Below, in pieces: positions 2,015 through 46,669 of a stretch of 64,000 nucleotides of DNA. Source of the DNA: Kiritimatiellia bacterium (GTDB taxonomy: Bacteria; Verrucomicrobiota; Kiritimatiellia; RFP12; JAAYLN01); assembly GCA_045627605.1 (NCBI GenBank), contig JAZQOA010000056.1, forward strand, positions 23,685 to 87,684, in the 5' to 3' direction. The stretch's first letter is position 1; each line of letters opens with the position of its first letter. The position numbers were made by a program, and so were the translations under genes. Under the pieces are notes generated by a model. That model ran no database searches. It saw nothing but the letters and a program-made list of their open reading frames with translations, and was not told the DNA's origin.

Positions 2015-3661
<1,647 letters not shown>

Positions 3662-3718
3662 TTTTATTTCTCCTTTTGCCGCGGCGGCCGCCGGTGGGCG
3701 CCGCCGCGAAACCGATGT

Positions 3719-4006
3719 TTATTCGAGAACGCCGAGAAGATCCTCTTCGCGGACGAGCTGGTAGGTCTTGTCGTCGAGCTTGACCTCGGTCCCGCCGTAC
3801 TTCGGCAGGAGGACGCGGTCGCCGACCTTGACGTCGAACTTGAGTTCCTTGCCGTCCTTGTCGCGCTTGACGCCGACGGCGATCACCTTGCCCTCCATGG
3901 GCTTTTCCTTGGCGGTGTCGGGAATGTAGATGCCGCCCTTGAGCTGTTCCTTAGCCTCGACAGGCTCGATGAGCACGCGCTCACCCAGGGGTCTGATTTT
4001 AGCCAT
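3719..4006 (-). CDS. groS: Co-chaperonin GroES (10 kDa)
   Basis: 95-aa ORF starting [23 protein letters not shown], 57 bp upstream of groEL. Confidence 0.95.
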
Positions 4007-4042
4007 GATGTGTTTTCTCCGTTGTTGTTGGTTAGGAATTGT

Positions 4043-4076
4043 CCCGCGGCGGCGTGGTGGGGTCGCCGCCGCGGGG
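4043..4076 (-). terminator. GC-rich inverted repeat between the dnaK stop and the groES start (possible dnaK terminator or attenuator; no T-tract)
   Basis: Perfect 12-bp stem CCCGCGGCGGCG / CGCCGCCGCGGG with a 9-nt loop. No U-tract, so read-through into groES is possible. Confidence 0.35.
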
Positions 4077-4085
4077 AAGTCGAAG

Positions 4086-5996
4086 TTAGTTGTTCATCGT
4101 GAAGTCGCCGTCGATGACGTCGTCGTCCTTCTTCGCGCCGGCGTCGCCGCCGGGCGGAGGCGGGGGAGGCGTGCCGGCGCCCGGCTGGGCGCCCTGCGCG
4201 CCGGCCTGCTGGGAGTAGAGCTCCTGGCCGATGGCCTGCACCGCGGTCATGAGCGCCTCCTTCTTGGCCTTGATGGCCGCGAGGTCGGAGCCCTTGAGCG
4301 CGTCCTTGAGGTCGGCGAGCGCCTTCTCGACCGGGGCCTTCTTCTCGGCGGAGATCTTGTCGCCGCTTTCCTTGAGGGCCTTCTCGGTCTGGTAGACCGC
4401 GCTGTCCGCCTGGTTGCGCTCGTCGATCTCCTCCTTGCGCTTCTCGTCCTCGGCCGCGTGGGCCTCGGCGTCCTTGCGCATCCGCTCGACCTCCTCCTTG
4501 GAGAGGCCCGAGGGGGCGGTGATCGTGATCTTCTGCTCCTTGCCCGTGCCGAGATCCTTGGCGCTCACGTTGAGGATGCCGTTGGCGTCGATGTCGAAGG
4601 TGACCTCGATCTGCGGGACGCCGCGCGGCGCCGGCGCGATGCCGTCGAGCATGAAGTTGCCGATCTTCTTGTTGTCCGCCGCCATCTTGCGCTCGCCCTG
4701 GAGCACCACGATGTCGACGCCGGGCTGGTTGTCCGCGGCCGTGGAGAAGATTTCGCTCTTCTTCGTCGGGATCGTCGTGTTGCGCTCGATGAGCGGCGTG
4801 GAGATGCCGCCGAGCGTCATGATGCCAAGCGTGAGCGGCGTGACGTCGAGGAGGAGCACGTCCTTGACCTCGCCCTTGAGGATGCCGCCCTGGATCGAGG
4901 CGCCGATCGCCACGACTTCGTCGGGGTTCACGCCCTTGTGCGGCTCCTTGCCGAAGACCTCCTTGGCCTGGTCCTGGAGGCGCGGCATGCGGGTCTGGCC
5001 GCCGACGAGGACGACTTCGTCGACCTTGTCGATGGAGGCGTCGCGCATGCAGCCGCGGCAGGGGCCGACCGTCCGCTGGACGAGCGACTCGGAGAGCTGC
5101 TCGAGCTTGGCGCGGGTGAGGGTGAGCTGGAGGTGCTTGGGGCCGGTCGCGTCGGCGGTGATGAAGGGGAGGTTGATCTCCGAGTTCATCGCGCTCGAAA
5201 GCTCGATCTTGGCCTTCTCCGCCGCCTCGCGGAGGCGCTGGAGCGCCATCTCGTCCTTCGAGAGGTCGATGCCGTTGGAGGCCTTGAAGTCGTCGATCAT
5301 CCAGCGCATCACGGCCTGGTCGAGGTCGTCGCCGCCGAGGTGCGTGTCGCCGTTGGTGGCCATGACCTCGAAGACGCCGTCGCCGATGTCGAGGATCGAG
5401 ACGTCGAACGTGCCGCCGCCGAAGTCGTAGACCGCGATCTTCTCGTCCTTCTTCTTGTCGAGGCCGTAGGCGAGCGACGCCGCGGTCGGCTCGTTGATGA
5501 TGCGCTTGACGTCGAGGCCCGCGATGCGGCCCGCGTCCTTGGTCGCCTGGCGCTGGCTGTCGTTGAAGTACGCCGGGACGGTGATGACCGCCTCGGTGAT
5601 CTTCTCGCCCAGGAAGGCCTCGGCGTCGGTCTTGAGCTTCTGGAGGATCATCGCCGAGATCTCGGGCGGCGAGTAGGTCTTGTCGCCGACCTTGACGTGG
5701 GCGTCGCCGTTGGCGGCGCGGACCACCTCGTACGGCACGAGGTCGATTTCCTGCGAGACCTCGTCGTACTTGCGGCCCATGAAGCGCTTGATCGAGTAAA
5801 TCGTCATCTTGGGGTTCGTGACGGCCTGGCGCTTGGCGGCCTGGCCGACGAGACGCTCGCCGTTCTTCGTGAAGGCGACAATCGACGGCGTCGTACGCGC
5901 ACCCTCGGCGTTGGGGATTACGGTAGGCTGGCCGCCTTCCATGACGGCCATGCACGAATTGGTCGTGCCCAAGTCTATTCCAAGTACTTTTGACAT
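4086..5996 (-). CDS. dnaK: Molecular chaperone DnaK (Hsp70)
   Basis: Motifs [21 protein letters not shown] and GGDDLD. Start taken at MSKVLG (ATG at 5996, AAGGAGA RBS), not at the longer upstream ORF start at 6086. Confidence 0.95.
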
Positions 5997-6242
5997 TTTC
6001 TGTTTCTCCTTTGTGCCGCCCTCTACGTCTCTTTTCGACTGGAGCGGTCGCCTAATATTCAAGCAATCGCCATGCCAACTTTGCAAGGCCTCGGCATTTC
6101 ATCGCGCCAAACACCTGCGCAACAACTTTCTAATTTAATGAAAACAAAAATTGGCACACGGGGCCTGTCACACCGTGAATGTCACACTTTTCCGGACGCC
6201 AACCCAAAACTGCGACATCGTGTCACACCCCGGTTGCGGCGG

Positions 6243-6532
6243 CGCGAACCTTTCGCGTCTCGTGTCCTTCTGCGGCGAGCAAGGGCGTGAGACACGAGAC
6301 GAGAGACATGAAGCACCAGCTCCATCCTCGATCAACTGCGGCGGCGGGGCGATCCTTTCGCGTCTCGTGTCTCGCGTCTCGTGTCCTTCTGCGGTGAGCA
6401 AGGGCGTGAGACACGAGACGCGAGACATGAAGCACCAGCTCCATCCTCGATCAACTGCGGCAGCGGGGCGATCCTTTCGCGACTCGTGTCTCGCGTCGCG
6501 TGTCCTCTGCGGTAAGCGAGGGCGTGAAGCAC
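6243..6532. repeat. Array of ~123-bp hairpin-containing repeat (REP-like), about 2.5 units
   Basis: Unit GCGATCCTTTCGCGTCTCGTGTC...GAGACACGAGACGCGAGACATGAAGCACCAGCTCCATCCTCGATCAACTGCGGCAGCGGGG, with a 13-bp inverted repeat CGCGTCTCGTGTC / GACACGAGACGCG. The same family recurs at 7345-7477 and 15470-15885. Confidence 0.85.
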
Positions 6533-6534
6533 CC

Positions 6535-6574
6535 AAAAAGCATCGTGTGCGCGTCTTCAAACGCGCACACGATG
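6535..6574 (-). terminator. Rho-independent terminator (13-bp stem plus T-tract on the minus strand)
   Basis: CATCGTGTGCGCG-TCTTCAAA-CGCGCACACGATG, followed on the minus strand by CTTTTT. Lies 3' of the duplicated adhesin 3'-end fragment. Confidence 0.6.
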
Positions 6575-6585
6575 CCGCCACCCTA

Positions 6586-6720
6586 CTTCATTTCGACCTT
6601 GACGTGGAAGAACCGGTGCGACGCCTCGACGGGGCTGCTCCACATGCCGCCGAGTTCCGCCTTGCCCTTGATCGTGTAGGTGCGCTTCGCCTCGTCCTCG
6701 GGCGGCGTGAAGGCACCGTC
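6586..6720 (-). pseudogene. Duplicated 3'-terminal fragment (about the last 45 codons) of the adhesin gene at 9366-13508
   Basis: About 90% nucleotide identity to 9366-9500. It encodes ...SSPVEASHRFFHVKVEMK-like C-terminus plus a stop, with no upstream coding continuity. Confidence 0.75.
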
Positions 6721-6739
6721 TGACCAGAAATACGCTTGC

Positions 6740-6800
6740 GATAACACCGTAATTCATGTATACTATACGGCAAAAACAAGCCAAATGAGGTAGGTTCACA
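6740..6800 (+). promoter_or_regulatory. Putative dinJ-yafQ promoter/operator with palindrome GTATA-C-TATAC
   Basis: Near-perfect inverted repeat GTATACTATAC at 6758-6768 overlapping a TATACT -10-like hexamer. The region is conserved upstream of the second TA copy (15035-15105), with GAGGT RBS. Confidence 0.4.
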
Positions 6801-7070
6801 ATGTCGAGCATGACTATTTCAGTAGATGACAAAGTCAAACGTGAGTTCTCGGCCTTCTGCAGCGATGTCGGGCTCTCCGCTTCCGCGCTCATCAACGTGT
6901 TCATGGTGAAGACGGCACGCGAACGCCGTGTGCCGTTTGTCATCGAAGTGCCGCACAGCCCAAATGCTGAAACCATCGCCGCGCTTGAAGAAGGAGATCG
7001 CATCGTCAATGACCCTACGCGCAAAAGGTACACAAACCTTGAAGAGCTTTGGAAGGATCTTGAATCGTGA
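6801..7070 (+). CDS. dinJ: Type II antitoxin, RelB/DinJ family
   Basis: 89-aa ORF MSSMTISVDDKVKREFSAFCSDVGLSASALINVFMVK, typical of DinJ. Its stop overlaps the toxin start (GTGA). Confidence 0.85.
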   Translation: MSSMTISVDDKVKREFSAFCSDVGLSASALINVFMVKTARERRVPFVIEVPHSPNAETIAALEEGDRIVNDPTRKRYTNLEELWKDLES

Positions 7071-7342
7071 AGTACGCGATTGACAGGACTGCCACTTTCA
7101 AGCGCGACTACAAAAGGGCAATCAAACGAAACTTGCCGATTGAGAAGCTTCAAGCCGTCATCGGCAAACTCGCCAGAGGCGAAGAACTTCCGCCAGCCAA
7201 TCACGACCATTCGCTTTCAGGAAACTGGTCAAACCACCGCGAATGCCATATCGCCCCAGACTGGCTGCTGATTTACCAAATCAAGGAAAGTGTCCTCGTC
7301 CTTGAATTGACACGTACCGGCACCCACGCCGACTTGTTCTAA
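7067..7342 (+). CDS. yafQ: Type II toxin, YafQ/RelE-family mRNA interferase
   Basis: 91-aa ORF with the YafQ-like C-terminus HRECHIAPDWLLIY...LTRTGTHADLF. GTG start overlaps the antitoxin stop. Confidence 0.85.
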   Translation: MKYAIDRTATFKRDYKRAIKRNLPIEKLQAVIGKLARGEELPPANHDHSLSGNWSNHRECHIAPDWLLIYQIKESVLVLELTRTGTHADLF

Positions 7343-7344
7343 CC

Positions 7345-7477
7345 CGCCGCCGACGCGATCCTTTCGCGTCTCGTGTCCTCTGCGGCGAGCGAGGTCGTGA
7401 GACATGAGACGCGAGACAAGAAGCACCAGCTCCATCCTCGATCAACTGCGGCAGCGGGGCGATCCTTTCGCGTCTCG
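7345..7477. repeat. ~123-bp hairpin repeat, about 1.1 units
   Basis: Same family as 6243-6532. It begins right after the yafQ stop with CCCGCCGCCGACGCGATCCTTTCGCG. Confidence 0.85.
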
Positions 7478-7590
7478 CGAACGATTCCCGGCTCTTTAAT
7501 CGGCGGGCAAAAGCCCGCCTATGTAAAAAGAGCGATGTAAATTGCCGAGATTGCCGAGGCAATTCACGGTAAAATGCTACAAAATGACCG
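7478..7590 (+). repeat. ~110-bp repeated element X with three consecutive palindromes (copy 1)
   Basis: CCGGGAA-CGA-TTCCCGG; GGCGGGC-AAAA-GCCCGCC; ATTGCCGAG(ATTGCCGAG)GCAAT; then GGTAAAAT. A second copy lies at 14805-14905. Confidence 0.7.
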
Positions 7591-7632
7591 GGAAATGTCA
7601 ATTACGCGGCGTTCTGGGTTCTATGCACGGGT

Positions 7633-8919
7633 TTAAGGACGAAGACAACCGATGGGGCAGATCAGGGTTCCGTCGTTCGCCTGATAGGCGTAAGCACCCT
7701 CTGCAACGACGATCATCCTGAACGACGGAGCCTTCATTAGCTTCGTGTCAATTTCTTCCTCAAGCTTTTTAAGCTTTTCACGCCCCTCTGATATAAGTGC
7801 CTCGCCGCCCAGCTTCACTTCAATGAGTCCGTACTTTCCGTTGCGCAAATGCATGACCGCATCGCACTCAAGCCCGCTCTTGTCACGGTAATGACTAACT
7901 TTCCCGTCATTCGCCTCCGCATACGTTCGCAGATCTCGCGCAACAAGCGTTTCGAAGAATAGCCCGAATGTCTTCAGATCGTTCATCAGATCGTCCGGCC
8001 CCAGTCCCAGCACCGCCGTTGCAATCGATGGATCAGTGTAATATCTCGTATCCGTCGTCCGCACCGGTGTCTTACAGCGGAGATTTGGGCACCACGCCGG
8101 CATATCCTCGACGACAAAGAGCTTTTTCAATGCTCCGATGTACGAAAAGATTGTATTCTCATGAACGCCACTTTTCGGTAAATTCGGGACAAGGTCGGCC
8201 TTGACCGCAGAGGCGGCTGATTGCGTGCCCTGCAAACGGGCCAAAGACTTCATGATGCGAAGCGCAAGGTCGGGGTCCCGCCGAATGTCGTCCACTCTGG
8301 AAATGTCCGCATTGACAATGGCATCCACATAATCAAATGCCTGACGCAATGCCGCCCTTCCCGTTTTCTCTGTTGCCTTAGGCCATCCACCGCGACAGGT
8401 CAAGTACGCGATCTCCTCCAGCGTATGCGGCATTGCATCGCCTAGTCGAACCTTACCAGCAAACAATTCTGCGAAAGAGACACCCCCCGACGATTCCTCG
8501 CTCTCGAACAATGCCATTGGGCGCATCTTGATCCAGGCAAACCTTCCGGTTCCCGTATGATGAATCTTTTTCTTCGCTTCTTCATCCAAAGGAACCGCAC
8601 TGCCAGTAAGAATGTATTTGCCGTCCCCATCCGAATGATCAACGTCAAAACGGATTGCATCCCAAAGCTCTGGCGCAATCTGCCACTCGTCAATCAACCG
8701 CGGATTATCCCCCTCCAAAAGACGTTGCGGGTTCGTTTGCGCCGTCAAAAGATACTGCCCTTGACATTTGGGGTCGTTCAGGTAGATAATACTTTTGGAA
8801 ATCTGCTCGGCTGTTGTCGTCTTCCCACACCACTTAGCCCCTTCAATCAGAACAGCGGCCTTCGCCTGAAGCGCGTCAGCCAAAATAGCGTCCAATACTC
8901 TATTTTTATACTTTTTCAT
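7633..8919 (-). CDS. AAA+ ATPase, COG1373 family (AAA_14 plus DUF4143-like C-terminal region)
   Basis: 428-aa ORF with Walker A GAKWCGKTT and Walker B LIDEWQ. Its GC is lower than the flanking DNA. Confidence 0.8.
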   Translation of the reverse strand: MKKYKNRVLDAILADALQAKAAVLIEGAKWCGKTTTAEQISKSIIYLNDPKCQGQYLLTAQTNPQRLLEGDNPRLIDEWQIAPELWDAIRFDVDHSDGDGKYILTGSAVPLDEEAKKKIHHTGTGRFAWIKMRPMALFESEESSGGVSFAELFAGKVRLGDAMPHTLEEIAYLTCRGGWPKATEKTGRAALRQAFDYVDAIVNADISRVDDIRRDPDLALRIMKSLARLQGTQSAASAVKADLVPNLPKSGVHENTIFSYIGALKKLFVVEDMPAWCPNLRCKTPVRTTDTRYYTDPSIATAVLGLGPDDLMNDLKTFGLFFETLVARDLRTYAEANDGKVSHYRDKSGLECDAVMHLRNGKYGLIEVKLGGEALISEGREKLKKLEEEIDTKLMKAPSFRMIVVAEGAYAYQANDGTLICPIGCLRP

Positions 8920-8958
8920 AGTGTTATTGTATCAAATAGAATATCTGGCATCAAGCCT

Positions 8959-9081
8959 CATTGTGACGGTTGGCGCGATTTCATTGTGGCGGTTGGCGCG
9001 ATTTCATTGTGGCGGTTGGCGCGATTTCATTGTGGCAGTTGGCGCGATTTCATTGTGGCAGTTGGCGCGATTTCATTGTGA
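8959..9081. repeat. 23-bp perfect tandem direct repeats x about 5.3 (iteron-like), in the 5' region of the ATPase gene
   Basis: CATTGTG(A/G)CGGTTGGCGCGATTT repeated head-to-tail with period 23, with only 1-2 substitutions between units. It starts 40 bp upstream of the ATPase start codon. Confidence 0.9.
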
Positions 9082-9090
9082 GTCCACGAG

Positions 9091-9136
9091 CATCCCTTAT
9101 GCCCCCGCATCTGTGGGGGCATAAGGGATGTTTTTG
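9091..9136 (+). terminator. Strong stem-loop with T-tract (terminator-like) on the plus strand
   Basis: Perfect 16-bp stem CATCCCTTATGCCCCC / GGGGGCATAAGGGATG with a 9-nt loop, followed by TTTTT. Confidence 0.5.
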
Positions 9137-9365
9137 GGGCGGACGAGACGATCCAGCTGACCGACTCGCGCACGGCGGAGGTGTACCCGACGAGCTGCGC
9201 CGCGTGACCGCCATGGTCGAAATCAACGGCAGAAGGCAGAAGATGACGTTCCTCACAAACACCCCGTCTGGGCGGCCTCGACCGTCGCCGAACTCTACCG
9301 GGATCTGCGGGAGATTCATTAAGGTCGGTCGGCGCGAAGGCGGCGACTGACCAAGAATAGCCACC

Positions 9366-12300
9366 CTACTTCATCTCCACCTTGACGTGGAAGAACCGGT
9401 GCGATGCCTCGACGGGGCTGCTCCACGTGCCGCCGAGTTCGGCCTTGCCTTCGATCGTGTAGGTGCGCTTCGCCTCTTCCTCGGGCGGCAGCTTCGGCTC
9501 CCATGAGACCACCGGGGCACCGTTCTCGAACGCGATCCGCGCCCGGAAAACGGCATCCTTGTCCGTCGGGTCGAGCCCGGCGACGTAGCACTGCCAGACC
9601 TTGTCCACGCCGTTCGCGGCGGTCGCCATCGCCGCCGTCTCGTACGCCGCCTCCGTGCCGCCAAGCCCGTATTCGTCGAGCCATTCGTAGGGCACCGGCA
9701 CGGGCGTGGTCTGCGTCTCGGACGACTCCGACGGCATTTCGCCGCTCCACGACACGCAGTCGATCGCCACGAAGTCCGCGATGTCGTCAGCGGTGCCTGC
9801 GTTCCAGAACTCCCAGCGGACGACATGCTCGCCTTCGCCGGTGATTTCGGTTGACATCGCCGTCCAGCCGCAGGTGTCGTAGAGTCCGTCAACGGGTTCC
9901 CCGTCGATGAACAGGTCGAATCCCGCCGCATGCCCCGTCGAGACCATCGCCTTGTAGGCGAGCGTCCCCGGCCCGGTGACCGTCGTTTCAAGGCAGCTCA
10001 CGTCGTCCCCCAGCACCGGCCCGGAAACCGCCGCGCCCGTGGCGTCCGACGCGATCTCCAGCTGCGGCGTCCAGGCGGCGGCGCCGTAGGTCGTCCACTC
10101 CAGCTTCGGCGCGTCGAGGACGCCGCCGAGGGTGACGGCGTTCACCGCGACCGCCAGCGAACGCGGCCTGTCCGCGACGAACGAGAGCGAATTGCCGTCG
10201 CGGGTAACGCCCGTCCTGTCGCCCGACACCTCGGCCGTGTAGAACGCCGTTGTCGGCGCGAAGTCGATGCGGACGCTCTCGCCGTACTTCACCCACCGGT
10301 TCGTGAAGGACGTCGTGGCGGGGCCCGTCAGGGAGAGCTCCACCCAGCAGTTCGTCTCCCACAGCCACGTGATCTCCGAATCCTCGTAAAGGACAAACGA
10401 AACCGTGTTCGACGGGCCGCTTGCGGGAATGCTCCCGCTTCCGGCCCAGCCGATGCAGCCGTACCGCCAGCCGTCTTCCTCGACGACCGCCTCCACCGAG
10501 GCCGTCACCACGTCACCGTAGTGGCGCGCGCCCTCCGTCCCCGACACGACCGCCGTGCCGTGCGCGGACGACGCGGTGACATTCTCCACCGGCAGCCACG
10601 AGGTGCAGACGGCGGAAATCGTCCGCGGCCTGTCCGCGACGAAGACCAGCGCGTCGCCCTCGCGGGCAACGCCCGACATGTCGCCCGTGAAGGCGAACTC
10701 GTAGAAGAGGGCGTCCGTCGCGAAGTCGATGCGGACGCTCTCGCCGTACTTCACCCACTGGTTCGTGAAGGCCGTCGTGGCGGGGCCCGTCAGGGAGAGC
10801 TCAACCCAGCAGTTCGTCTCCCACAGCCACGTGATTTCCGAATCCTCGTATAGCGTAAACGAAACCGTGTTCGACGGGCCGCTTGCGGGAATGCTCCCGC
10901 TTCCGGCCCAGCCGATGCAGCCGTACCGCCAGCCGTCTTCCTCGACGACCGCCTCAACCGAGGCCGTCACCACGTCGCCGTAGTGCCGTGCGCCGTCCGT
11001 CCCCGACACCACAGCCGTGCCGTGCGCGGTCTGGGCGGCGACGTCAAGGAACGGCCGCCACGAGACATTGTCCACGAAACCCGCGTCCTCGCCGGCGGCC
11101 GTGGTCGAGCCCTTCTCGTAGCGCCAGGTGACGGCGTGCTCGCCGTCGCCCAGCTCGAACGCCACATGCGCCCACGCCTTCTCGCCGCTGACTCTCGCCT
11201 GCTGGACGCCGTCGGCGTACACCGCGAGGAAATGGCCGCGGGCATTGCAGGAGACGCGCCAGTCGAAGGCGAAGATGCCCGCGCCCGAAACCGCGACGGA
11301 CATCTCCGTCGCCGCGCTGCTCCCGATCTCCGGGCTCCGCACCGCGTAGCCGCCCGGGCTGTCCGCGTCCGCGACCGCGTACCACTCAAGTTCGTTCGTC
11401 ACGGAGACGGGCCAGACGTACACGCCCAGCGAATCCGTGATCACGAAGGGCACCTCGACCGCGCCCGTGTAGTTGACCCCGCCCGTCACAACCGCGCAGC
11501 CCGTCCCCGGGCGGTCGTTGTCGCGGTAGGACACCTCGTAGTTCCCCGGGGCGACGTCGCGGCCGTCCGCCGTCACGGACACCGCCGGGCAAATCGCCTC
11601 GCCGAGATACACATACACATTGGGGTCGCACGTGGCCGTCCATTCCTCGACCGGGAGGATCGTGAACGTCGCCCCCGTGAACGAAAGCGTGTAGTTCCCG
11701 CCCGCGTCGAGCGTCCCCTGCCCAATCGCGTAGGTGCCCGCGTTCTCGCCCGCCGCGCGGGTCAGCGCTCCCGTCATCTTGTCGGTTCCCACAAGGCCGC
11801 TCGCCGTGTAGGTCAGGGCCGGATCGGCGGCACCGTAGGTCTTTGACGCGGCGTTGGCGGTCACCGTAAGAGCCTTCTTGTTGATGATGAAATTCGCCCC
11901 CGTGAACGAAAGCGCATAGTTCCCGCCCGCGTCGAGCGTCCCCTGCCCGATCGCGTAGGTGCCCGCGTTCTCGCCCACCGTGCGGGACAGTGCACCCGTC
12001 ACCTTGTCGGTACCCACAAGGCCGCTCGCCGTGTAGGTCAGGGCCGGGTCGGCGGCGCCGTAGGTCTTCGACACGGCGTTGGCGGTCACCGTAAGAGCCT
12101 TCTTGTTGATGGTGAAATTCGTCCCCGTGAACGCTATCGTGTAGTTCCCGCCTGCGTCGAGCGTTCCCTGCCCGATCGGGTAGGTGCCCGCGTTCTCGCC
12201 CGACGCACGGGACAATGCACCCGTCACCTTGTCGGTTCCCACAAGGCCACTCGCCGTGTAGGTCAGGGCCGGATCGGCGGCACCGTAGGTCTTTGACGCG

Positions 12301-13508
12301 GCGTTGGCGGTCACCTGCACGGCGCGTTTGGCGATGCAGACGGGGATGACGCCGGTTTCAACGACAGCACCGTTAATGGTGACCTTGTACCAGATGTTCG
12401 TGTCGCATACATCCCTAAAGACGGGCCTTTCGGAAGAGTAGGCGCCGTTTTCGGAAGATGCGTAGGAGACGGCGCACGGTACGCTTCCGCACTCCGCCGT
12501 GACGGACACCTCCAACGCCACGCCGTCGTAGCATTTCTCGCAGCCGTTCTCGGGCACGTTACAATCGTACCGCGTCATGCGAAGTCCCCGCCAGGTTCCA
12601 TCGGAGGAAATCGCCGCTTCCCACTCCTCGCTGAACTTCGACGGGTAGTATCCGGCGGAGCAGTACGAGCCGAAGTCACGATAGTCAAAACTGACATCGG
12701 GAACGCCTTCTGGAAAGATGAATGACGTTAGGCTGCGGCAACCGTAAAACGCATCGTCCCCGATGCTCGTCACCGACGACGGAATCGTCACTGACGCCAA
12801 GCCGCTGCAATAATAAAACGCTTCCATCCCGATGCGCGTCACGCCATCGGGAATCGTCACAGACGTCAGCCCGCTGCAATAATGAAACATTCCAAATCCG
12901 ATGCTCGTCACGCCCACGGGAATCGTCACAGACGTCAGGCCGCTGCAACCCGCAAACGCAGAGCTCCCGATGCTCGTCACCGAAGACGGGATCGTCACAG
13001 ACGTCAGGCCGCTGCAATTGTAAAACGCAGAGTCCCCGATGCTCGTCACGCCCTCAGGGATCGTCACTGCCCCGTTTTTACCGGCAGGGCATTGGATCAG
13101 CCCTGTTTGCGCTATGTCATAGAGAATGCCGTCAACGGAATAATACGACGGATTGCCGTTGGCAACGGCGATCGCCGTTAGACAGCGGCACCCCCTAAAC
13201 GCACCATTCCCGATGCTCGTCACGCCTTCGGGGATCGTCACAGACGTCAGACCGCTGCAATTGTAAAACGCATAATCACCGATGCTCGTCACGGGATAGC
13301 CGTTGATCGTTTCGGGGATGGCGACGCTCCCGCTCGTGCCTGTCGGAATCGCCGACGACCAACCGTTGCCTATCGTCGCCTTTCCGCCACTAACGCTGTA
13401 CTGCCACGTCACACCGTTGCCGTCGGTGTACGTGTCGCCAAAGGCAACGGCCGCGCTGAACACTAACGCGGCCGCAAGCGCACAAAAGCGCAAAGCAAGT
13501 TTTTTCAT
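9366..13508 (-). CDS. Large surface adhesin-like protein: signal peptide, BspA-type leucine-rich repeats, 3x MBG domains, 2x ~160-aa tandem repeat (Listeria-Bacteroides-repeat-like)
   Basis: Start taken at MKKLALRFCALAAALVFSAAVAFG (ATG at 13508), not the upstream ORF start. Repeated xIPxxVTSIGxxAFxxCxxLTSVT modules. Three ~76-aa KTYGAADPALTYTASGLVGTDK...GGNY repeats. Confidence 0.85.
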   Translation of the reverse strand: MKKLALRFCALAAALVFSAAVAFGDTYTDGNGVTWQYSVSGGKATIGNGWSSAIPTGTSGSVAIPETINGYPVTSIGDYAFYNCSGLTSVTIPEGVTSIGNGAFRGCRCLTAIAVANGNPSYYSVDGILYDIAQTGLIQCPAGKNGAVTIPEGVTSIGDSAFYNCSGLTSVTIPSSVTSIGSSAFAGCSGLTSVTIPVGVTSIGFGMFHYCSGLTSVTIPDGVTRIGMEAFYYCSGLASVTIPSSVTSIGDDAFYGCRSLTSFIFPEGVPDVSFDYRDFGSYCSAGYYPSKFSEEWEAAISSDGTWRGLRMTRYDCNVPENGCEKCYDGVALEVSVTAECGSVPCAVSYASSENGAYSSERPVFRDVCDTNIWYKVTINGAVVETGVIPVCIAKRAVQVTANAASKTYGAADPALTYTASGLVGTDKVTGALSRASGENAGTYPIGQGTLDAGGNYTIAFTGTNFTINKKALTVTANAVSKTYGAADPALTYTASGLVGTDKVTGALSRTVGENAGTYAIGQGTLDAGGNYALSFTGANFIINKKALTVTANAASKTYGAADPALTYTASGLVGTDKMTGALTRAAGENAGTYAIGQGTLDAGGNYTLSFTGATFTILPVEEWTATCDPNVYVYLGEAICPAVSVTADGRDVAPGNYEVSYRDNDRPGTGCAVVTGGVNYTGAVEVPFVITDSLGVYVWPVSVTNELEWYAVADADSPGGYAVRSPEIGSSAATEMSVAVSGAGIFAFDWRVSCNARGHFLAVYADGVQQARVSGEKAWAHVAFELGDGEHAVTWRYEKGSTTAAGEDAGFVDNVSWRPFLDVAAQTAHGTAVVSGTDGARHYGDVVTASVEAVVEEDGWRYGCIGWAGSGSIPASGPSNTVSFTLYEDSEITWLWETNCWVELSLTGPATTAFTNQWVKYGESVRIDFATDALFYEFAFTGDMSGVAREGDALVFVADRPRTISAVCTSWLPVENVTASSAHGTAVVSGTEGARHYGDVVTASVEAVVEEDGWRYGCIGWAGSGSIPASGPSNTVSFVLYEDSEITWLWETNCWVELSLTGPATTSFTNRWVKYGESVRIDFAPTTAFYTAEVSGDRTGVTRDGNSLSFVADRPRSLAVAVNAVTLGGVLDAPKLEWTTYGAAAWTPQLEIASDATGAAVSGPVLGDDVSCLETTVTGPGTLAYKAMVSTGHAAGFDLFIDGEPVDGLYDTCGWTAMSTEITGEGEHVVRWEFWNAGTADDIADFVAIDCVSWSGEMPSESSETQTTPVPVPYEWLDEYGLGGTEAAYETAAMATAANGVDKVWQCYVAGLDPTDKDAVFRARIAFENGAPVVSWEPKLPPEEEAKRTYTIEGKAELGGTWSSPVEASHRFFHVKVEMK

Positions 13509-13612
13509 CGTGCATTCTCTTTCGCGCCAACCTTGTCGAGGCCTGCCGCTCCGGCGCGAAAAGAGGAGCGGCTGGCCTTCCAGTTCTAAACTCGTCTTCC
13601 GACACAAAACCG

Positions 13613-14548
13613 TCACTTCGACCCTTTGCACATGGCGCAGTGAGTGTCGCATTTGGCGCAGCAGTCGCAAGGCCCAATGCGAAGATTCCCCTTGAACAAG
13701 CTTTCCATAATCGGGTTGAACTCGTCCGACACGCCAGCAGCGCGTCTGATGAAATCACGGACGGCTTCGACCAGATCCCCATGGCATTCTTCATCGTTTA
13801 CACAGACACGGAGCCGCCCGATCAGGCTCTCACGCTCCATCCAGGGGCCTGTAACCACCGGGGGATGATTTTTATCACCCTCCTTGCCGTACTCGAGCAT
13901 CTCGGCCAAGACATCAGTGGCCTCAATCTCAATCTTATCCGCTTTGACACCTTCGGGAAGTGTGACAATAAGACGGGCCTCCCTCTCGTCACGCCAGCCA
14001 AGATATTTTGACACTCCGGGGAGGAGTTTTATGTTTTCCTGGAAATTACCCATCCCATCCGACATTATGCAAATTTCGCCATTCGAGAAATGCACAAGAT
14101 TTTCTTTATTCCCGGAGAGGTAGCACACATACGACAACTTCGCCTCGGCGGCAACGCAGTGATCCTCTTGAACATGTCCGCCGACAACAGGATATGCATT
14201 CAGTTTCCCGCCTTTGAAAAGGGCCAGAATCTTGCTCCTTGAAAAGCGAAGGCGAATCGCCTCGTTCCTTGTCCGTCCATAGACTGTCCACATGGCCGGA
14301 CTCTCCGTCGGGGCGGCGGAAAGGGAAAAGACGAATGTACGATCAGCTCCGGGGAACTTTTCCGTACCGTCATTCATCGCGTCGGCACGGGAAAGACGGA
14401 GCCGTCCGTACTTGAGCATGCCAAGCAGACCTTCGATCCTGGTATGGTGAAACATATTGTATTGCCCACCGACTGTTTTTTCATCGATGCGGAGCCGTTC
14501 ACATATCTGATCTGCCGTCAGACTTTCAAGCGTAGTTTTCGTGCTCAA
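13613..14548 (-). CDS. DUF2971-family protein with Cys-rich C-terminal tail
   Basis: 311-aa ORF. MFHHTRIEGLLGMLKYGRLRLSRADAMNDGTE matches the DUF2971 N-terminal NDxxE signature. C-terminus GPCDCCAKCDTHCAMCKGSK. The start is uncertain: either TTG at 14548 or ATG at 14455 (MFHHT). Confidence 0.65.
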   Translation of the reverse strand: MSTKTTLESLTADQICERLRIDEKTVGGQYNMFHHTRIEGLLGMLKYGRLRLSRADAMNDGTEKFPGADRTFVFSLSAAPTESPAMWTVYGRTRNEAIRLRFSRSKILALFKGGKLNAYPVVGGHVQEDHCVAAEAKLSYVCYLSGNKENLVHFSNGEICIMSDGMGNFQENIKLLPGVSKYLGWRDEREARLIVTLPEGVKADKIEIEATDVLAEMLEYGKEGDKNHPPVVTGPWMERESLIGRLRVCVNDEECHGDLVEAVRDFIRRAAGVSDEFNPIMESLFKGNLRIGPCDCCAKCDTHCAMCKGSK

Positions 14549-14804
14549 TTCATGATGCCTCTTTCGCGCCTACCTTGTTGAGGCCCGCCGCTCCGGCGCG
14601 AAAAAAGAGTGGCGTGCCTTCAGAATATGTCTTATCTGAGGCACCGCCAAGCGCCCATAGCTAAACATAATGATGAAAGTACGCCACGTGATCGCATCAC
14701 GTGACGCAACCTTCGTATTCGCTTAGCTATTGAAAAATTGGCGGTATTTCAGATAAAGCCAAATACGCAGTTGCGTACGTCCCCCGGCCCGAGGCCGGGA
14801 CACA

Positions 14805-14905
14805 CCGGGAACGATTCCCGGCTCTTTAATTGGCGGGCCACGCCCGCCTATGTAAAAAGAACAACGCAAATTGCCGAGGCAATTCGCAGGTAAAATATTA
14901 CACAA
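14805..14905 (+). repeat. Repeated element X (copy 2)
   Basis: CCGGGAACGATTCCCGGCTCTTTAATTGGCGGGCCACGCCCGCCTATGTAAAAAGA...AAATTGCCGAGGCAATTCGCAGGTAAAAT. About 85% identical to 7478-7590. Confidence 0.7.
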
Positions 14906-15109
14906 AAGCGGCAGTTGTGTCAAACAATTCTGGAGATGCCGCGGCTGCCACCGCGTCGCGACACCTCCTTTTGAACGGGCTAAAGAATCCCCTCCTTTTA
15001 GAGTCCTTTCCAGGCGGCGACCGACCTTGAATACGCTTACGACAACACCGTTGTTTACGTATACTATACGGCAAAACCAAGCCAAACGAGGTAGAGCTCA
15101 ATCTCGAGC

Positions 15110-15467
15110 ATGACTATTTCAGCAGATGACAAAGTCAAACGTGAGTTCTCGGCTTTCTGCAGCGATGTCGGACTCTCCGCTTCCGCGCTCATCAACGTGT
15201 TCATGGTGAAGACGGCATGTGAACGCCATGTGCCGTTTGTCATCGAAGTGCCGCACATCCCCAATGCCGAAACCATCGACGCGCTCAAAGAAGGCGATCG
15301 CATCGTCGATGACCATACGCGCAAAAGGTACACAAGCCTTCAGGAAACTGGTCGAATCACCGCAAATGCCATATCGCCCCCAGACTGACTGCTGATCTAC
15401 CAGATCAAGGAAAGCGTCCTCGTCCTTGAATTGACTCGTACCTGCACCCACGCCGATTTGTCCTGAC
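15110..15467 (+). pseudogene. Degenerate dinJ-yafQ locus: DinJ antitoxin fused out-of-frame to the 3' end of yafQ after a ~190-bp deletion
   Basis: The first 76 codons are about 90% identical to dinJ at 6801. A deletion removes the dinJ 3' end and yafQ codons 1 to about 50. The remaining yafQ tail (HRECHIAPD...) is out of frame. Confidence 0.75.
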
Positions 15468-15469
15468 CC

Positions 15470-15885
15470 GCCGCCGACGCAATCTTTTCGCATCTCACGT
15501 CCTCTGCGGGGAGCAAGGGCGTGAGACACGAGACGAGAGACAAGAAGCACCAGCCCGCCCTCGATCAACTGCGGCAGCGGGGCGATCCTTTCGCGTCTCG
15601 TGTCCTCTTCGGGGAGCGAGGTCGTGAGACACGAGACGAGAGACATGAAGCACCAGCTCCATCCTCGATCAACTGCGGCAGCGATGCGATCCTTTCGCGT
15701 CTCACGTCTCGCGTCTCGTGTCCTCTGCGGCGAGCAAGGGCGTGAGACACGAGACGTGAGACAAGAAGCACCAGCCCACCCTCGATCAACTGCGGCAGCG
15801 GCGGGGCGATCCTTTCGCGTCTCGTGTCTCGCGTCTCGTGTCCTCCCGCGGTGAGCGAGGGCGTGAGACATGAGACATGAAGCGC
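15470..15885. repeat. Array of ~123-bp hairpin repeat, about 3.5 units
   Basis: Same family as 6243-6532 and 7345-7477, and again starts CCCGCCGCCGACGC right after the TA stop. Confidence 0.85.
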
Positions 15886-15913
15886 CCGCCCAACCCCTCA
15901 CCCGAAACGGAAA

Positions 15914-15982
15914 CCGAATCTGACCGAATGAAAATGCCGAATCTGACCGAATGAAAATACAAAATATGACCGAACGAAATCA
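15914..15982. repeat. 23-bp tandem repeat x about 2.5
   Basis: CCGAATCTGACCGAATGAAAATG repeated with period 23. It is AT-rich relative to the surrounding DNA. Confidence 0.7.
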
Positions 15983-16096
15983 AGACGCTGCAGGCGGCAT
16001 TCGCCTCGCAAGCATTGCAAAGCGCAGTTGTTTCGCATGCCTCCTGTGGGGAAAATGCTTGCGAACAAGTCCGCAGTTTGCCATAATTTCTCCACC

Positions 16097-16894
16097 ATGA
16101 ATGTTGGAAAGTATCTGGAACGCATCGGCTACCAGGGCGGTCTTGAACCGAACGCCGCAAACCTCGCCGCGCTCGTGCAGGCCCACCGTCTCACGGTTCC
16201 CTACGAAACGTTCGACATCTGGCGCGGGCGCCATACGACACTCGCCATCGAGGACATCTACGGGAAAATCGTCACGCGCCGCCGCGGCGGCTACTGCTTC
16301 GAGCTGAACGGCCTCTTCGCCTGGCTGCTGCGCGAACTCGGCTACAATGTGCGCGAATACTTCGGCCGCTGGCTCCTGGGCGAAGACCGGGCCGTGCCAA
16401 AGCGCCGCCATCGCGTCGTGTGCGTCGCCCTGCCGTCGGGCCCGAACAAGATCGCCGATGTCGGCATCGGCATGCCGTTCGTCCTCTCGCCCCTCGACTT
16501 CGTCCTCGACGTCCCCCAAGTGGGCGACAACAAGATCTACCGCTTTGTGAAGGATCCTGTCCTGACTTGCGCGGTGCAGGCGAAAAAGCGGGACGGCACC
16601 TGGGTCAATCTCTTTTCATTCGACACCGCGCCGCAGCTGCCGATTGACTTCGCCTACGCGCACTGGTGGTGCGAGACGCACCCCGACAGCCCGTTCCGGA
16701 AAAACGCCTGGGCCTTCCTGCCCCTTCCCGACGGCGGCTTCAAGTCCATCCGCCTGGAAGCCGTCCCCGGCACGGACGAACCGCTCCCCGTGTTTTCGGC
16801 CGTCGCCGCCGACGGAACGGAGCAAAAGTCCATTTTGCACGGCGAGACGGCCCTCGCCGAAGCGCTCAGGGAGCATTTCGGCATCGTCGAATAA
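16097..16894 (+). CDS. Arylamine N-acetyltransferase (NAT family)
   Basis: Catalytic-Cys motif RGGYCFELNG. Start taken at MNVGKYLERIGY, the typical NAT N-terminus. Confidence 0.85.
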   Translation: MNVGKYLERIGYQGGLEPNAANLAALVQAHRLTVPYETFDIWRGRHTTLAIEDIYGKIVTRRRGGYCFELNGLFAWLLRELGYNVREYFGRWLLGEDRAVPKRRHRVVCVALPSGPNKIADVGIGMPFVLSPLDFVLDVPQVGDNKIYRFVKDPVLTCAVQAKKRDGTWVNLFSFDTAPQLPIDFAYAHWWCETHPDSPFRKNAWAFLPLPDGGFKSIRLEAVPGTDEPLPVFSAVAADGTEQKSILHGETALAEALREHFGIVE

Positions 16895-46536: not shown

Positions 46537-46669
46537 CCTTGGCCAATCAGGAGCGGACGATGTGGATCGCCTTGCCGTCTTGCACCGCGTAAATAAGGCG
46601 TTTTGGAGTGATGAAATTTCGTAAATAAGGCGTTTAAGAAGCGTGAATTTTCCCAAATAAGGCGCTTCG

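Follow-up and report, generated by a model that had tools for sequence, protein, structure and literature searches.

An insertion/deletion polymorphism with a toxin-antitoxin pair and an ATPase gene between two copies of an adhesin gene tail in a gut Kiritimatiellia genome

In this Kiritimatiellia genome, the 3' end of a large adhesin gene occurs twice in the interval that separates dnaK from a gene for an N-acetyltransferase, which raises the question of how the genes between the two copies came to lie there. We analyzed the locus within a window of 64 kb (the whole stretch of DNA considered), and in comparison haplotypes that are all short-read metagenome contigs from different samples. We conclude that the 2.65-kb block between the copies represents a genuine insertion/deletion polymorphism, of a fairly ordinary sort, in an adhesin/TA/ATPase locus prone to rearrangement, and that it is not a classic transposon. 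The conserved left anchor is dnaK (Hsp70; 4086-5996, minus strand; Pfam HSP70, E 7.6e-264), whose product has 636 aa and is called at the same length in contigs L001 and L002. The NAD-GH ORF antisense to it (3930-5993) is the well-known spurious ORF. The adhesin-like surface protein (9366-13508, minus strand) starts with MKKLALRF and has a signal peptide, BspA-type LRR_5 (E 1.4e-50), three MBG_2 domains (E 7.9e-62) and repeated C-terminal modules. In L002, its 3' half is kept and the 5' half is swapped for other sequence.

The adhesin tail forms a gap-free direct repeat of 130 nt (6577-6706 and 9360-9489; 122/130 identical, 93.8%) that spans the final 40 codons and the stop together with 6-7 bases of flank (GCCACCC), and the duplication is about 130-139 bp long. 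The sequence-only reading had described a duplicated tail with the same stop, about 90% identical and located at 6586-6720 and 9366-9500. The duplication and the shared stop (CTA on the plus strand at 6583-6585 and 9366-9368) hold. The positions were roughly right, although the exact limits are those given here, and the identity is 94%; bases 6707-6720 have no adhesin likeness. Copy A (6577-6706, minus strand) adjoins a repeat array and is a dead stub, or pseudogene, at the old position, and copy B (9360-9489, minus strand) is continuous with the gene body and keeps the adhesin gene intact. Searched with tblastn against the whole 64 kb, the adhesin tail has the stub as its sole other significant match (E 8e-22). 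Homology stops sharply at both ends, and the stub is not part of a remnant of a longer paralogue. A diversity-generating retroelement was considered and rejected, with only two of the eight A/B differences at an A in the stub; no reverse transcriptase domain was found among the ORFs scanned with Pfam.

The insert (6707-9359; 2,653 bp) enters the adhesin 40 codons inside its 3' end and has a GC content of 50-55%, compared to 62-70% in the flanks. Pfam and NCBIfam scans indicate that it encodes only RelB, YafQ, an AAA_14/DUF4143 protein and a scrap of an IS4-superfamily transposase, and the order of features first read from the letters (dinJ-yafQ, repeat, element X, ATPase, 23-nt repeats, hairpin, gene remnant) was confirmed. 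The toxin-antitoxin genes, here TA1 (6801-7342, plus strand), are intact and preceded by a promoter-like site (6736-6764). The dinJ (6801-7070) and yafQ (7067-7342) ORFs overlap by 4 nt (7067-7070) and constitute one operon, RelB/DinJ then YafQ, with both domains above the gathering score (RelB, E 3.6e-11; YafQ_toxin, E 9.9e-35); by domain order this is a predicted type II DinJ(RelB)-YafQ system. Following it are rep_M (7348-7477), a single unit of a 119-nt repeat family, and element X (7476-7584), a structured sequence of 109 nt (fold -38 to -40 kcal/mol, z about -3) that has a 79% identical copy, X', at 14806-14905 and matched no Rfam family.

The ATPase gene (7633-8919, minus strand; Pfam AAA_14 and DUF4143) is of the PADLOC PDC-S01 type. 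Its product matches HMM PDLC04790 over residues 1-426 (profile positions 8-417 of 422; E 2.4e-63), and is thus a predicted phage-defence candidate in a family that is itself only a candidate. Proteins with this architecture (COG1373, AAA_14 plus DUF4143) have a predicted PD-(D/E)XK domain (PMC3424549). Upstream are 23-nt repeats (8958-9080; TRF, 5.3 copies, 98% matches). Over 8000 homologues of the ATPase were identified, many of them 80-95% identical and on short contigs, and ATPases that are 92-93% identical to this one, in unrelated contexts, have three to four copies of the 23-nt repeat upstream. The ATPase gene and its 23-nt repeats are an independent, dispersed module. The transposase scrap (about 9136-9319, plus strand; about 60 codons) is frameshifted and internal: a stitched peptide of 62 aa matches NCBIfam NF033592 weakly at positions 231-285 of 332 (E 0.0019). 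No homologue was retrieved by word-index search, and the window and fetched comparison loci contain no intact copy. The cluster resembles defence islets in being small, low in GC and strain-variable, and in its make-up of a predicted TA pair alongside a defence-candidate ATPase and remnants of an IS, with full-length HMM matches. Unlike other such islets it lies inside a surface-adhesin tail, framed by local repeat arrays.

Both insert ends carry a 24-nt motif. DR_L (6709-6732, plus strand) flanks the TA1 module on its left and DR_R (9336-9359, plus strand) lies directly against copy B. They are imperfect direct repeats (5/24 mismatches), and the motif occurs at only three sites in the 64 kb at up to 7 mismatches; in 20 shuffles there were no matches at up to 6. 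Direct local alignment of the insert ends scores 23 (shuffle mean 13.2, sd 2.1). Aligned in inverted orientation, the two 100-nt ends reach a best score of 13, which is the shuffle mean (13.0), so terminal inverted repeats are lacking. Neither the ORF list nor Pfam/NCBIfam scans revealed a recombinase, integrase or excisionase, whether inside the insert or up to 5 kb from it. A transposon or IS identity was rejected given the lack of terminal inverted repeats and intact transposase and a duplication of 130-139 bp, which is not short. The proposal that the tails are a transposon's target-site duplication is thus not supported.

A variant of that proposal invokes an unusually long target-site duplication made by an IS beside copy B, the interior of which was later replaced. 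Insertions of IS1634 and IS1549 are bounded by long, variable direct repeats of 8-514 bp, and among IS, duplications of 130-139 bp are known only for these two (PMC2266710). The likeness extends to a duplication of over 100 bp around the inserted DNA and a trace of IS4-superfamily transposase at one end, only 40 nt from copy B. Yet here the ends are direct rather than inverted, of the transposase there is only a short internal piece, whose weak match is to an IS4 model and not IS1634, the cargo is unrelated to IS, and an intact IS copy is lacking from the window and fetched loci. We consider this explanation very improbable.

Contig L014 (ENA ERZ27247148), from a related strain, has dnaK followed by the repeat array, then the stop codon of the adhesin gene and its body. 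The contig aligns to window positions 2336-6416 at 97.9% and then to 9361-12315 at 96.0%, with nothing between, and lacks the TA genes, ATPase and IS scrap at the adhesin end. The unoccupied site predicted for relatives therefore exists, and the adhesin end against the array upstream of dnaK is probably the ancestral state. The junction of repeat, CCACCC and stop codon is common to the intact gene end of L014 and to stub A. Copy A has one truncation point and four private substitutions in all four sequences that carry it (the window, L001, L004 and L010), and the copies B of the window and L002 have two derived changes in common relative to L014. Copies A and B thus each look derived from an L014-like end. 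Per 130 positions, that end has 4-6 differences from copy B and 8 from copy A. Copy B also includes 7 nt of the repeat-array terminus, which indicates that it was copied from the resident context.

These comparisons bear on site-specific integration with a core near codon -41, in which copy B would be element-borne, copy A the displaced native end, and the integrase later lost. In E. coli, e14 and phage 21 integrate into the icd 3' end, and a pseudogene, icdC, is left behind (Hill et al., 1989; described in PMC13626634). The topology here matches icd ... e14 ... icdC exactly: an intact gene stands on one side of an accessory element and a truncated second copy of that gene's 3' end on the other, the flanking copies are direct repeats differing by few substitutions, their recombination would remove the element, and a relative (L014) has the unoccupied site. 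There are also 11 identical bases, CCTCGGGCGGC, at the 5' limit of the repeat, and elsewhere an ATPase module of the same family appears, from overlapping contigs (L027 and L028), to lie between two surface-protein gene tails. In contrast to e14, this 2.65-kb mosaic has no integrase, excisionase or phage genes, and its ends also carry the 24-nt direct repeat. The gene-attached copy looks resident rather than element-borne: it is the nearer to the empty-site end and holds the 7 nt of array terminus. Integration of this type is therefore improbable.

Hairpin-forming intergenic repeats frame the locus. The left array (rep_L, 6236-6527; TRF period 119, 2.3 copies, 94% matches) has a unit that folds at -53.5 kcal/mol (z -2.8) and a copy number that varies between strains, and its last partial unit adjoins the adhesin end in the empty-site strain. 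The right array (rep_R, 15472-15895) belongs to the same 119-nt family. Arrays of intergenic palindromes of the REP/BIME type are substrates for deletions and duplications. The arrays here are similar in their tandem hairpin-forming units, strain-variable copy number and position at breakpoints (the L001 crossover), and differ in the length of the unit (105-119 nt) and its confinement to one locus in the 64-kb window. Beyond the adhesin operon lies TA2' (15010-15600, plus strand), a degenerate, 89-90% identical paralogue of the DR-TA1-rep segment in which a 172-nt internal deletion joins relB to the yafQ 3' end. Its RelB' (92 aa) is identical in L011 and L021, the latter from the same sample as the empty-site contig; we assume that L014 and L021 represent one strain. 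L021 has the degenerate TA2' and lacks an intact TA1. Identical TA1 proteins are encoded on contigs from other samples, and exact dinJ and yafQ look-ups retrieved contigs from five samples or runs, none of them the empty-site sample.

The other haplotypes carry parts of the insert separately. L001 has the stub and TA1 without ATPase or adhesin, and L002 and L009 have TA1, ATPase and adhesin without the stub. A three-way alignment places the change in L001 from TA1-type to right-array-type sequence at about 7440-7476, inside a repeat unit, and rep_R is the partner of rep_M in the deletion that gave this arrangement. The insert is a mosaic and not a single mobile unit; one discrete cassette of about 2.7 kb, as initially envisaged, is not supported by these haplotypes or by the occurrence of the ATPase and 23-nt repeats alone elsewhere.

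The demonstrable recombination of the arrays (L001) also speaks for an alternative history, in which a segment was duplicated, or exchanged non-allelically between strains, and then decayed. Unequal recombination of the left and right arrays would have doubled everything between them (adhesin, upstream gene, X, TA and rep). In the left copy, a microhomology deletion would then have taken out the whole stretch between adhesin codon -41 and the TA flank, so that stub A came to lie beside TA1, with the block of X, ATPase and IS inserted separately at the array-adhesin junction. A, TA1 and rep_M are colinear with B/adhesin ... TA2'-rep_R, the divergences of TA1/TA2' (89-90%) and A/B (94%) are statistically compatible, the A-TA1 junction falls on the microhomology CGGGCGGC, the left limit of the A/B repeat is the array terminus, and the stretch from X to DR_R resembles the left part of an X'-107 nt-DR unit. 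However, at least three events are needed, and among the haplotypes examined none has two full adhesins and none has the ATPase block without TA1. Further, the empty-site sample has the same TA2' with the same 172-nt deletion. Had the duplication come after that deletion, TA1 could not be intact; the exceptions would be a reverted empty site, or a TA1 that came from another lineage as a divergent allele. We regard this history as possible, if rather unlikely.

Overall, recombination among local repeats is a more likely origin of the insert than transposition. We favor, as a reasonably probable account, acquisition of the islet by Campbell-like or microhomology recombination into the adhesin tail, followed by local reshuffling. 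The dnaK to N-acetyltransferase interval would then probably be a strain-variable islet of surface-protein and defence genes. Recombination is preferred over transposition because the 24-nt direct end repeats are the TA-module flank, the ends are not inverted and there is no recombinase. The incoming DNA would have been a circle or have exceeded one unit in length, and homology or microhomology to the adhesin tail would have mediated the joining; the direction of events is likewise a matter of inference. Exchange between arrays would later delete the ATPase and adhesin operon to give the L001 type, short-homology deletion would remove the stub to give the L002 type, and A x B recombination would restore an empty site. 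The empty site itself may be such a revertant: this is compatible with the SNPs, as a crossover in the first 50-78 nt leaves no A-private variant. The analysis recovered neither a donor molecule nor a circle nor a recombinase for the insert. The end repeats diverge more (5/24) than A and B (8/130), so the two duplications may not share one event. The resemblance of TA1-rep-X to X'-TA2'-rep across the adhesin operon is not predicted by a simple foreign-insert model.

The L027/L028 arrangement, inferred by contig overlap, has an apparent tandem or circular period of 1.7 kb. Conceivably, the ATPase gene and 23-nt array are a self-spreading cassette that takes up residence at the 3' ends of genes for large surface proteins, duplicating their tails or carrying them along. 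The A/B repeat and the tail/ATPase/tail-stub order of L027/L028 would then be two independent footprints of one homing-like process. We consider this doubtful.

The two strong hairpins relate to the expression of the adhesin. As reported from the letters, a strong minus-strand terminator lies by the truncated copy: 6539-6576 has a 17-bp stem (dG -31.9 kcal/mol, z -5.8) followed by a U-tract, UUUUUGGG, and so has the GC-rich stem-loop and U-tract of an intrinsic terminator. The intact adhesin 3' end (copy B) lacks such a terminator, again as described. The idea that the insert parted the adhesin from its "original" terminator is not upheld, given that the 43-nt hairpin by the stub is missing from the empty-site contig L014 and from the stub-bearing L001, L004 and L010. 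No other copy was found in the 64-kb window or the 21 comparison loci searched, and the hairpin is a lineage-specific addition private to this genome. It would now halt minus-strand read-through towards dnaK. The second hairpin (9084-9137) is an inverted repeat, I1, with a dG of -49.4 on the plus strand, followed by UUUUUGGGG, and of -40.2 on the minus strand, without a U-tract. It is a predicted plus-strand terminator and not a canonical one for the minus-strand adhesin, because the U-tract is present on the plus strand only.

The locus provides a clean, internally documented case from an uncultured gut Kiritimatiellia population of small defence/addiction genes taking up a place in a large adhesin gene's tail while the gene stays intact. 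The adhesin is now without a canonical terminator, and the stub should be annotated as a pseudogene and not called as a gene. Local repeat arrays shuffle the adhesin, TA pair and ATPase independently between strains, and the presence or absence of the adhesin within the species can flip by a single inter-repeat recombination. A broader question is whether this very abundant ATPase family has a preference for the 3' ends of surface-protein genes.

We identified two copies of the 3' end of an adhesin-like surface protein gene (9366-13508, minus strand, 1,380 codons), whose product carries a signal peptide together with BspA-type LRR_5 and three MBG_2 domains. The copies form an ungapped direct repeat of 130 nt, with 122 of 130 bases identical, at 6577-6706 (copy A, a truncated stub) and 9360-9489 (copy B, the true end of the gene). 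A encodes the last 40 residues of the adhesin with three changes, the identical stop codon and the identical 6-7 bases downstream; similarity ends at 6577 and 6706, with none beyond. The duplication recognized in an earlier sequence-only reading is thus a real repeat, although the coordinates were 9-14 nt too long and the identity is 94% rather than 90%. A is the sole match to the adhesin tail in the whole window (tblastn, E 8e-22). A C-terminal sorting motif common to many paralogues was rejected, as the window holds no other copy and database relatives of the C-terminal 300 amino acids reach at most 47% identity. A 26-mer from the tail had no match in JGI metagenomes. A template/variable repeat pair of a DGR was considered for A and B and rejected.

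The surrounding features occur in the order originally described. To the left are dnaK (4086-5996, minus strand), a tandem array (6236-6527) whose 119-nt unit forms a hairpin and a terminator (6539-6576), followed by A. The insert between the copies (6707-9359) begins with an intact dinJ-yafQ pair (TA1, with RelB and YafQ_toxin domains), then a single further repeat unit (7348-7477), the structured element X (7476-7584), a gene for an AAA_14/DUF4143 ATPase (7633-8919, minus strand), 5.3 copies of a 23-nt repeat (8958-9080) and a hairpin (9084-9137). Between this hairpin and B is a frameshifted scrap of a transposase gene, which matches the IS4 family weakly (E 0.002); a word search for the source IS gave no homologue. 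The GC content of the insert is 50-55%, compared with 62-70% in dnaK and the 3' half of the adhesin gene and 62% for the window. Beyond the adhesin operon are X' (14806-14905, a 79% copy of X), a degenerate TA copy (TA2', ~15010-15480, 89-90% identical to TA1) and, next to it, a second array of the 119-nt-type repeat (15472-15895).

X and X' fold into two stem-loops and have an exact 22-mer in common (GAACGATTCCCGGCTCTTTAAT) despite their 79% overall identity; the 22-mer had no match in JGI metagenomes, and Rfam gave nothing relevant across 6000-16200, leaving X/X' without an Rfam family. A CRISPR-like reading of the 119-nt array was rejected, as whole units recur and unique spacers are absent. 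TA2' is a pseudogene in which relB and yafQ are fused (15110-15480) and 172 nt are deleted internally; its 92-aa product is identical in two other samples, so its decay is older than the split of these strains. A second 23-nt tandem repeat, unrelated to that beside the ATPase gene (15913-15979, 2.9 copies, apparently fewer in contig L001) lies upstream of an N-acetyltransferase gene, and a 32-nt tandem repeat (46588-46664, 2.4 copies) is distant from the locus.

Exact-protein look-ups recovered same-species contigs from several metagenome assemblies in ENA and Logan (those with the ATPase, dnaK, a CesT-like protein and P0029 returned no record); a GTDB scan with the acetyltransferase gave one distant, non-syntenic Kiritimatiellia MAG. 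This relative and the names of homologues assign the genome to Kiritimatiellia. Flanks of the related contigs are 98-99% identical to the window, and four arrangements were seen, the window type being one. In L014 (ERZ27247148) the site is empty: dnaK is followed by the repeat array, the adhesin stop codon and the adhesin body. This contig aligns to window positions 2336-6416 (97.9%) and then directly to 9361-12315 (96.0%), and lacks the TA, ATPase, IS scrap and terminator. The junction in L014 (...GAAGCGCC|CCCACCC|stop) recurs beside stub A in L001, L004 and L010. These three represent another type, with the order repeat array, stub A, TA1, repeat array and acetyltransferase in L001 (L004 and L010 are alike as far as they reach). 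L001 lacks the ATPase, the IS scrap and the entire adhesin operon, and its switch from left-type to right-type sequence falls inside a repeat unit at ~7440-7476. L002 and L009 are window-like, with repeat-array sequence in place of stub A and the terminator; it joins the TA1 flank at CGGGCGGCG.

The proposed comparison with an empty site is therefore positive; we did not find the opposite outcome, in which no empty site exists and the stub derives from an independent, longer remnant of a paralogue. The haplotypes compared are all contigs assembled from short-read metagenomes. The A/B repeat is too short and divergent to collapse at k=141 (the longest exact run is ~26 nt), making an assembly artefact unlikely for L014. 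Repeat-array units differ too much among strains for unit typing to order events.

The strong minus-strand terminator noted earlier (6539-6576; 17-bp stem, -31.9 kcal/mol, with a U-tract) is present beside A, with none at B. The proposal that it was the original terminator of the adhesin gene is not supported. Its 43-nt hairpin is a clean indel seen in the window genome alone: it is missing from L014 and from the stub-bearing L001, L004 and L010, with no second copy in the window and none in the 21 loci searched. As the empty-site stop codon directly meets the repeat array, and the hairpin occurs only in the window, it would more simply be a lineage-specific gain, although it may instead have been lost in other lineages. 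Its base and tail (GCATC...GATG, TTTTTGGG) are similar to those of the plus-strand hairpin at 9084-9137. The latter has its U-tract on the plus strand only, and so provides no canonical terminator for the adhesin gene.

Insertion relative to an ancestral empty site, via recombination rather than transposition, is the best-supported history. Imperfect direct repeats make up the first 26 and the last 24 bases of the insert (GAAGGCACCGTCTGACCAGAAATA left, GAAGGCGGCGACTGACCAAGAATA right); this motif is found elsewhere in the 64 kb only at the left flank of TA2'. The insert ends have no inverted terminal repeats, and no recombinase is encoded within. Integration of the e14/icd type has the right topology, but the integrase is absent here; an IS1634-like event would share the long target duplication, but both inverted ends and an intact IS are missing. 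The junction of A with the insert coincides with the microhomology TCGGnCGGCG. A plasmid origin was rejected, as the insert had no plasmid match; so was a phage origin, with only two weak (~69%) partial ATPase matches on unannotated faecal phage contigs and no close relative in IMG/VR. Nor is the insert a single cassette, as was first suggested: some contigs have the stub with TA1 but lack ATPase and adhesin, and others have TA1, ATPase and adhesin but lack the stub.

All four A copies have a single truncation point and four private substitutions in common, and the B copies of the window and L002 have two derived changes in common relative to L014. The empty-site end lacks both sets, polymorphic sites aside, so A and B resemble two descendants of an L014-like end. 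From these substitutions A looks like a pseudogene drifting faster than B. B includes 7 nt of the repeat-array terminus, which points to the resident context as the source of its sequence. The insert would have joined the empty site by recombination, either through Campbell-like entry of a molecule that was circular or longer than one unit and carried the adhesin tail, or through microhomology joints. The L001 type would have arisen later through exchange between repeat arrays, and the L002 type, also later, through short-homology deletion.

In the main alternative, the whole inter-array segment was duplicated and the left copy then suffered a deletion. This accounts for the colinearity of A, TA1 and the repeat with B, TA2' and the repeat, but requires more events and is at odds with the presence of the degenerate TA2' in the sample that has the empty site, unless that site is a revertant. 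L021, from the ERZ27247148 sample too, begins shortly before TA2' (its linkage to L014 is assumed), and no TA1 contigs from this sample were among the look-up results. The SNPs are compatible with reversion, and the empty site may have arisen in this way.

The adhesin gene itself varies among strains. It contains in-frame long tandem repeats at 10162-11029 (462 nt x 1.9), 11669-12315 (225 nt x 2.9, spanning the MBG_2 domains) and 12724-13049 (69 nt x 4.7), and its product has 1613 aa in L002 versus ~1380 aa in the window. The 5' half and the gene upstream (~11460-14558; GC low, 51-59%; right limit 14558 conserved) differ in other strains, where unrelated sequence takes their place: L002 (14346-18230) has another N-terminus and an 8xMP membrane protein, and L011 (1-724) has an 89-aa ORF and a further secreted protein. 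A 64-nt sequence at 13517-13580 and 14559-14621 (87.5% identical), directly upstream of the starts of the adhesin and the preceding gene, marks the edge of the variable segment and may be a common leader or promoter module.

Along its whole length, the ATPase matches PDC-S01, a defence candidate in PADLOC (E 2.4e-63). Its ORF and the upstream 23-nt repeats are a dispersed module (loci L020 and L022-L028), also found in unrelated contexts (window 7637 to ~9031-9081, nothing further). Since they recur together elsewhere, the repeats belong to the upstream region of the ATPase gene and are not plasmid-type iterons of a cassette. In L020 a protein 92% identical to the window ATPase is encoded beside a regulator gene; one sequence 93% identical is shared by 7 contigs and spans at least 4 contexts, where it usually comes a few bases past the stop of a large surface-protein gene with the ending ...GTLIFVR*. 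More than 8000 close homologues belong to the family, and most of them lie on short contigs. In L028 the ATPase is followed (1371-1737) by a ~65-codon stub of a surface-protein gene tail and then 23-nt repeats. This stretch has 97% identity to the tail and repeats that precede the ATPase in L027 (L027:1-190). Judged from these overlapping contigs from different samples, the ATPase appears to be flanked by two tail copies; the overlap implies a period of ~1.7 kb, so that tail, repeats and ATPase may form a unit that is tandem or circular.

The locus is a known kind of event, well documented here: an accessory islet between duplicated gene tails, at a rearrangement hot spot. Of the leads, the ATPase module is the most interesting in its behaviour, with its frequent position just after the stop codons of large surface-protein genes.
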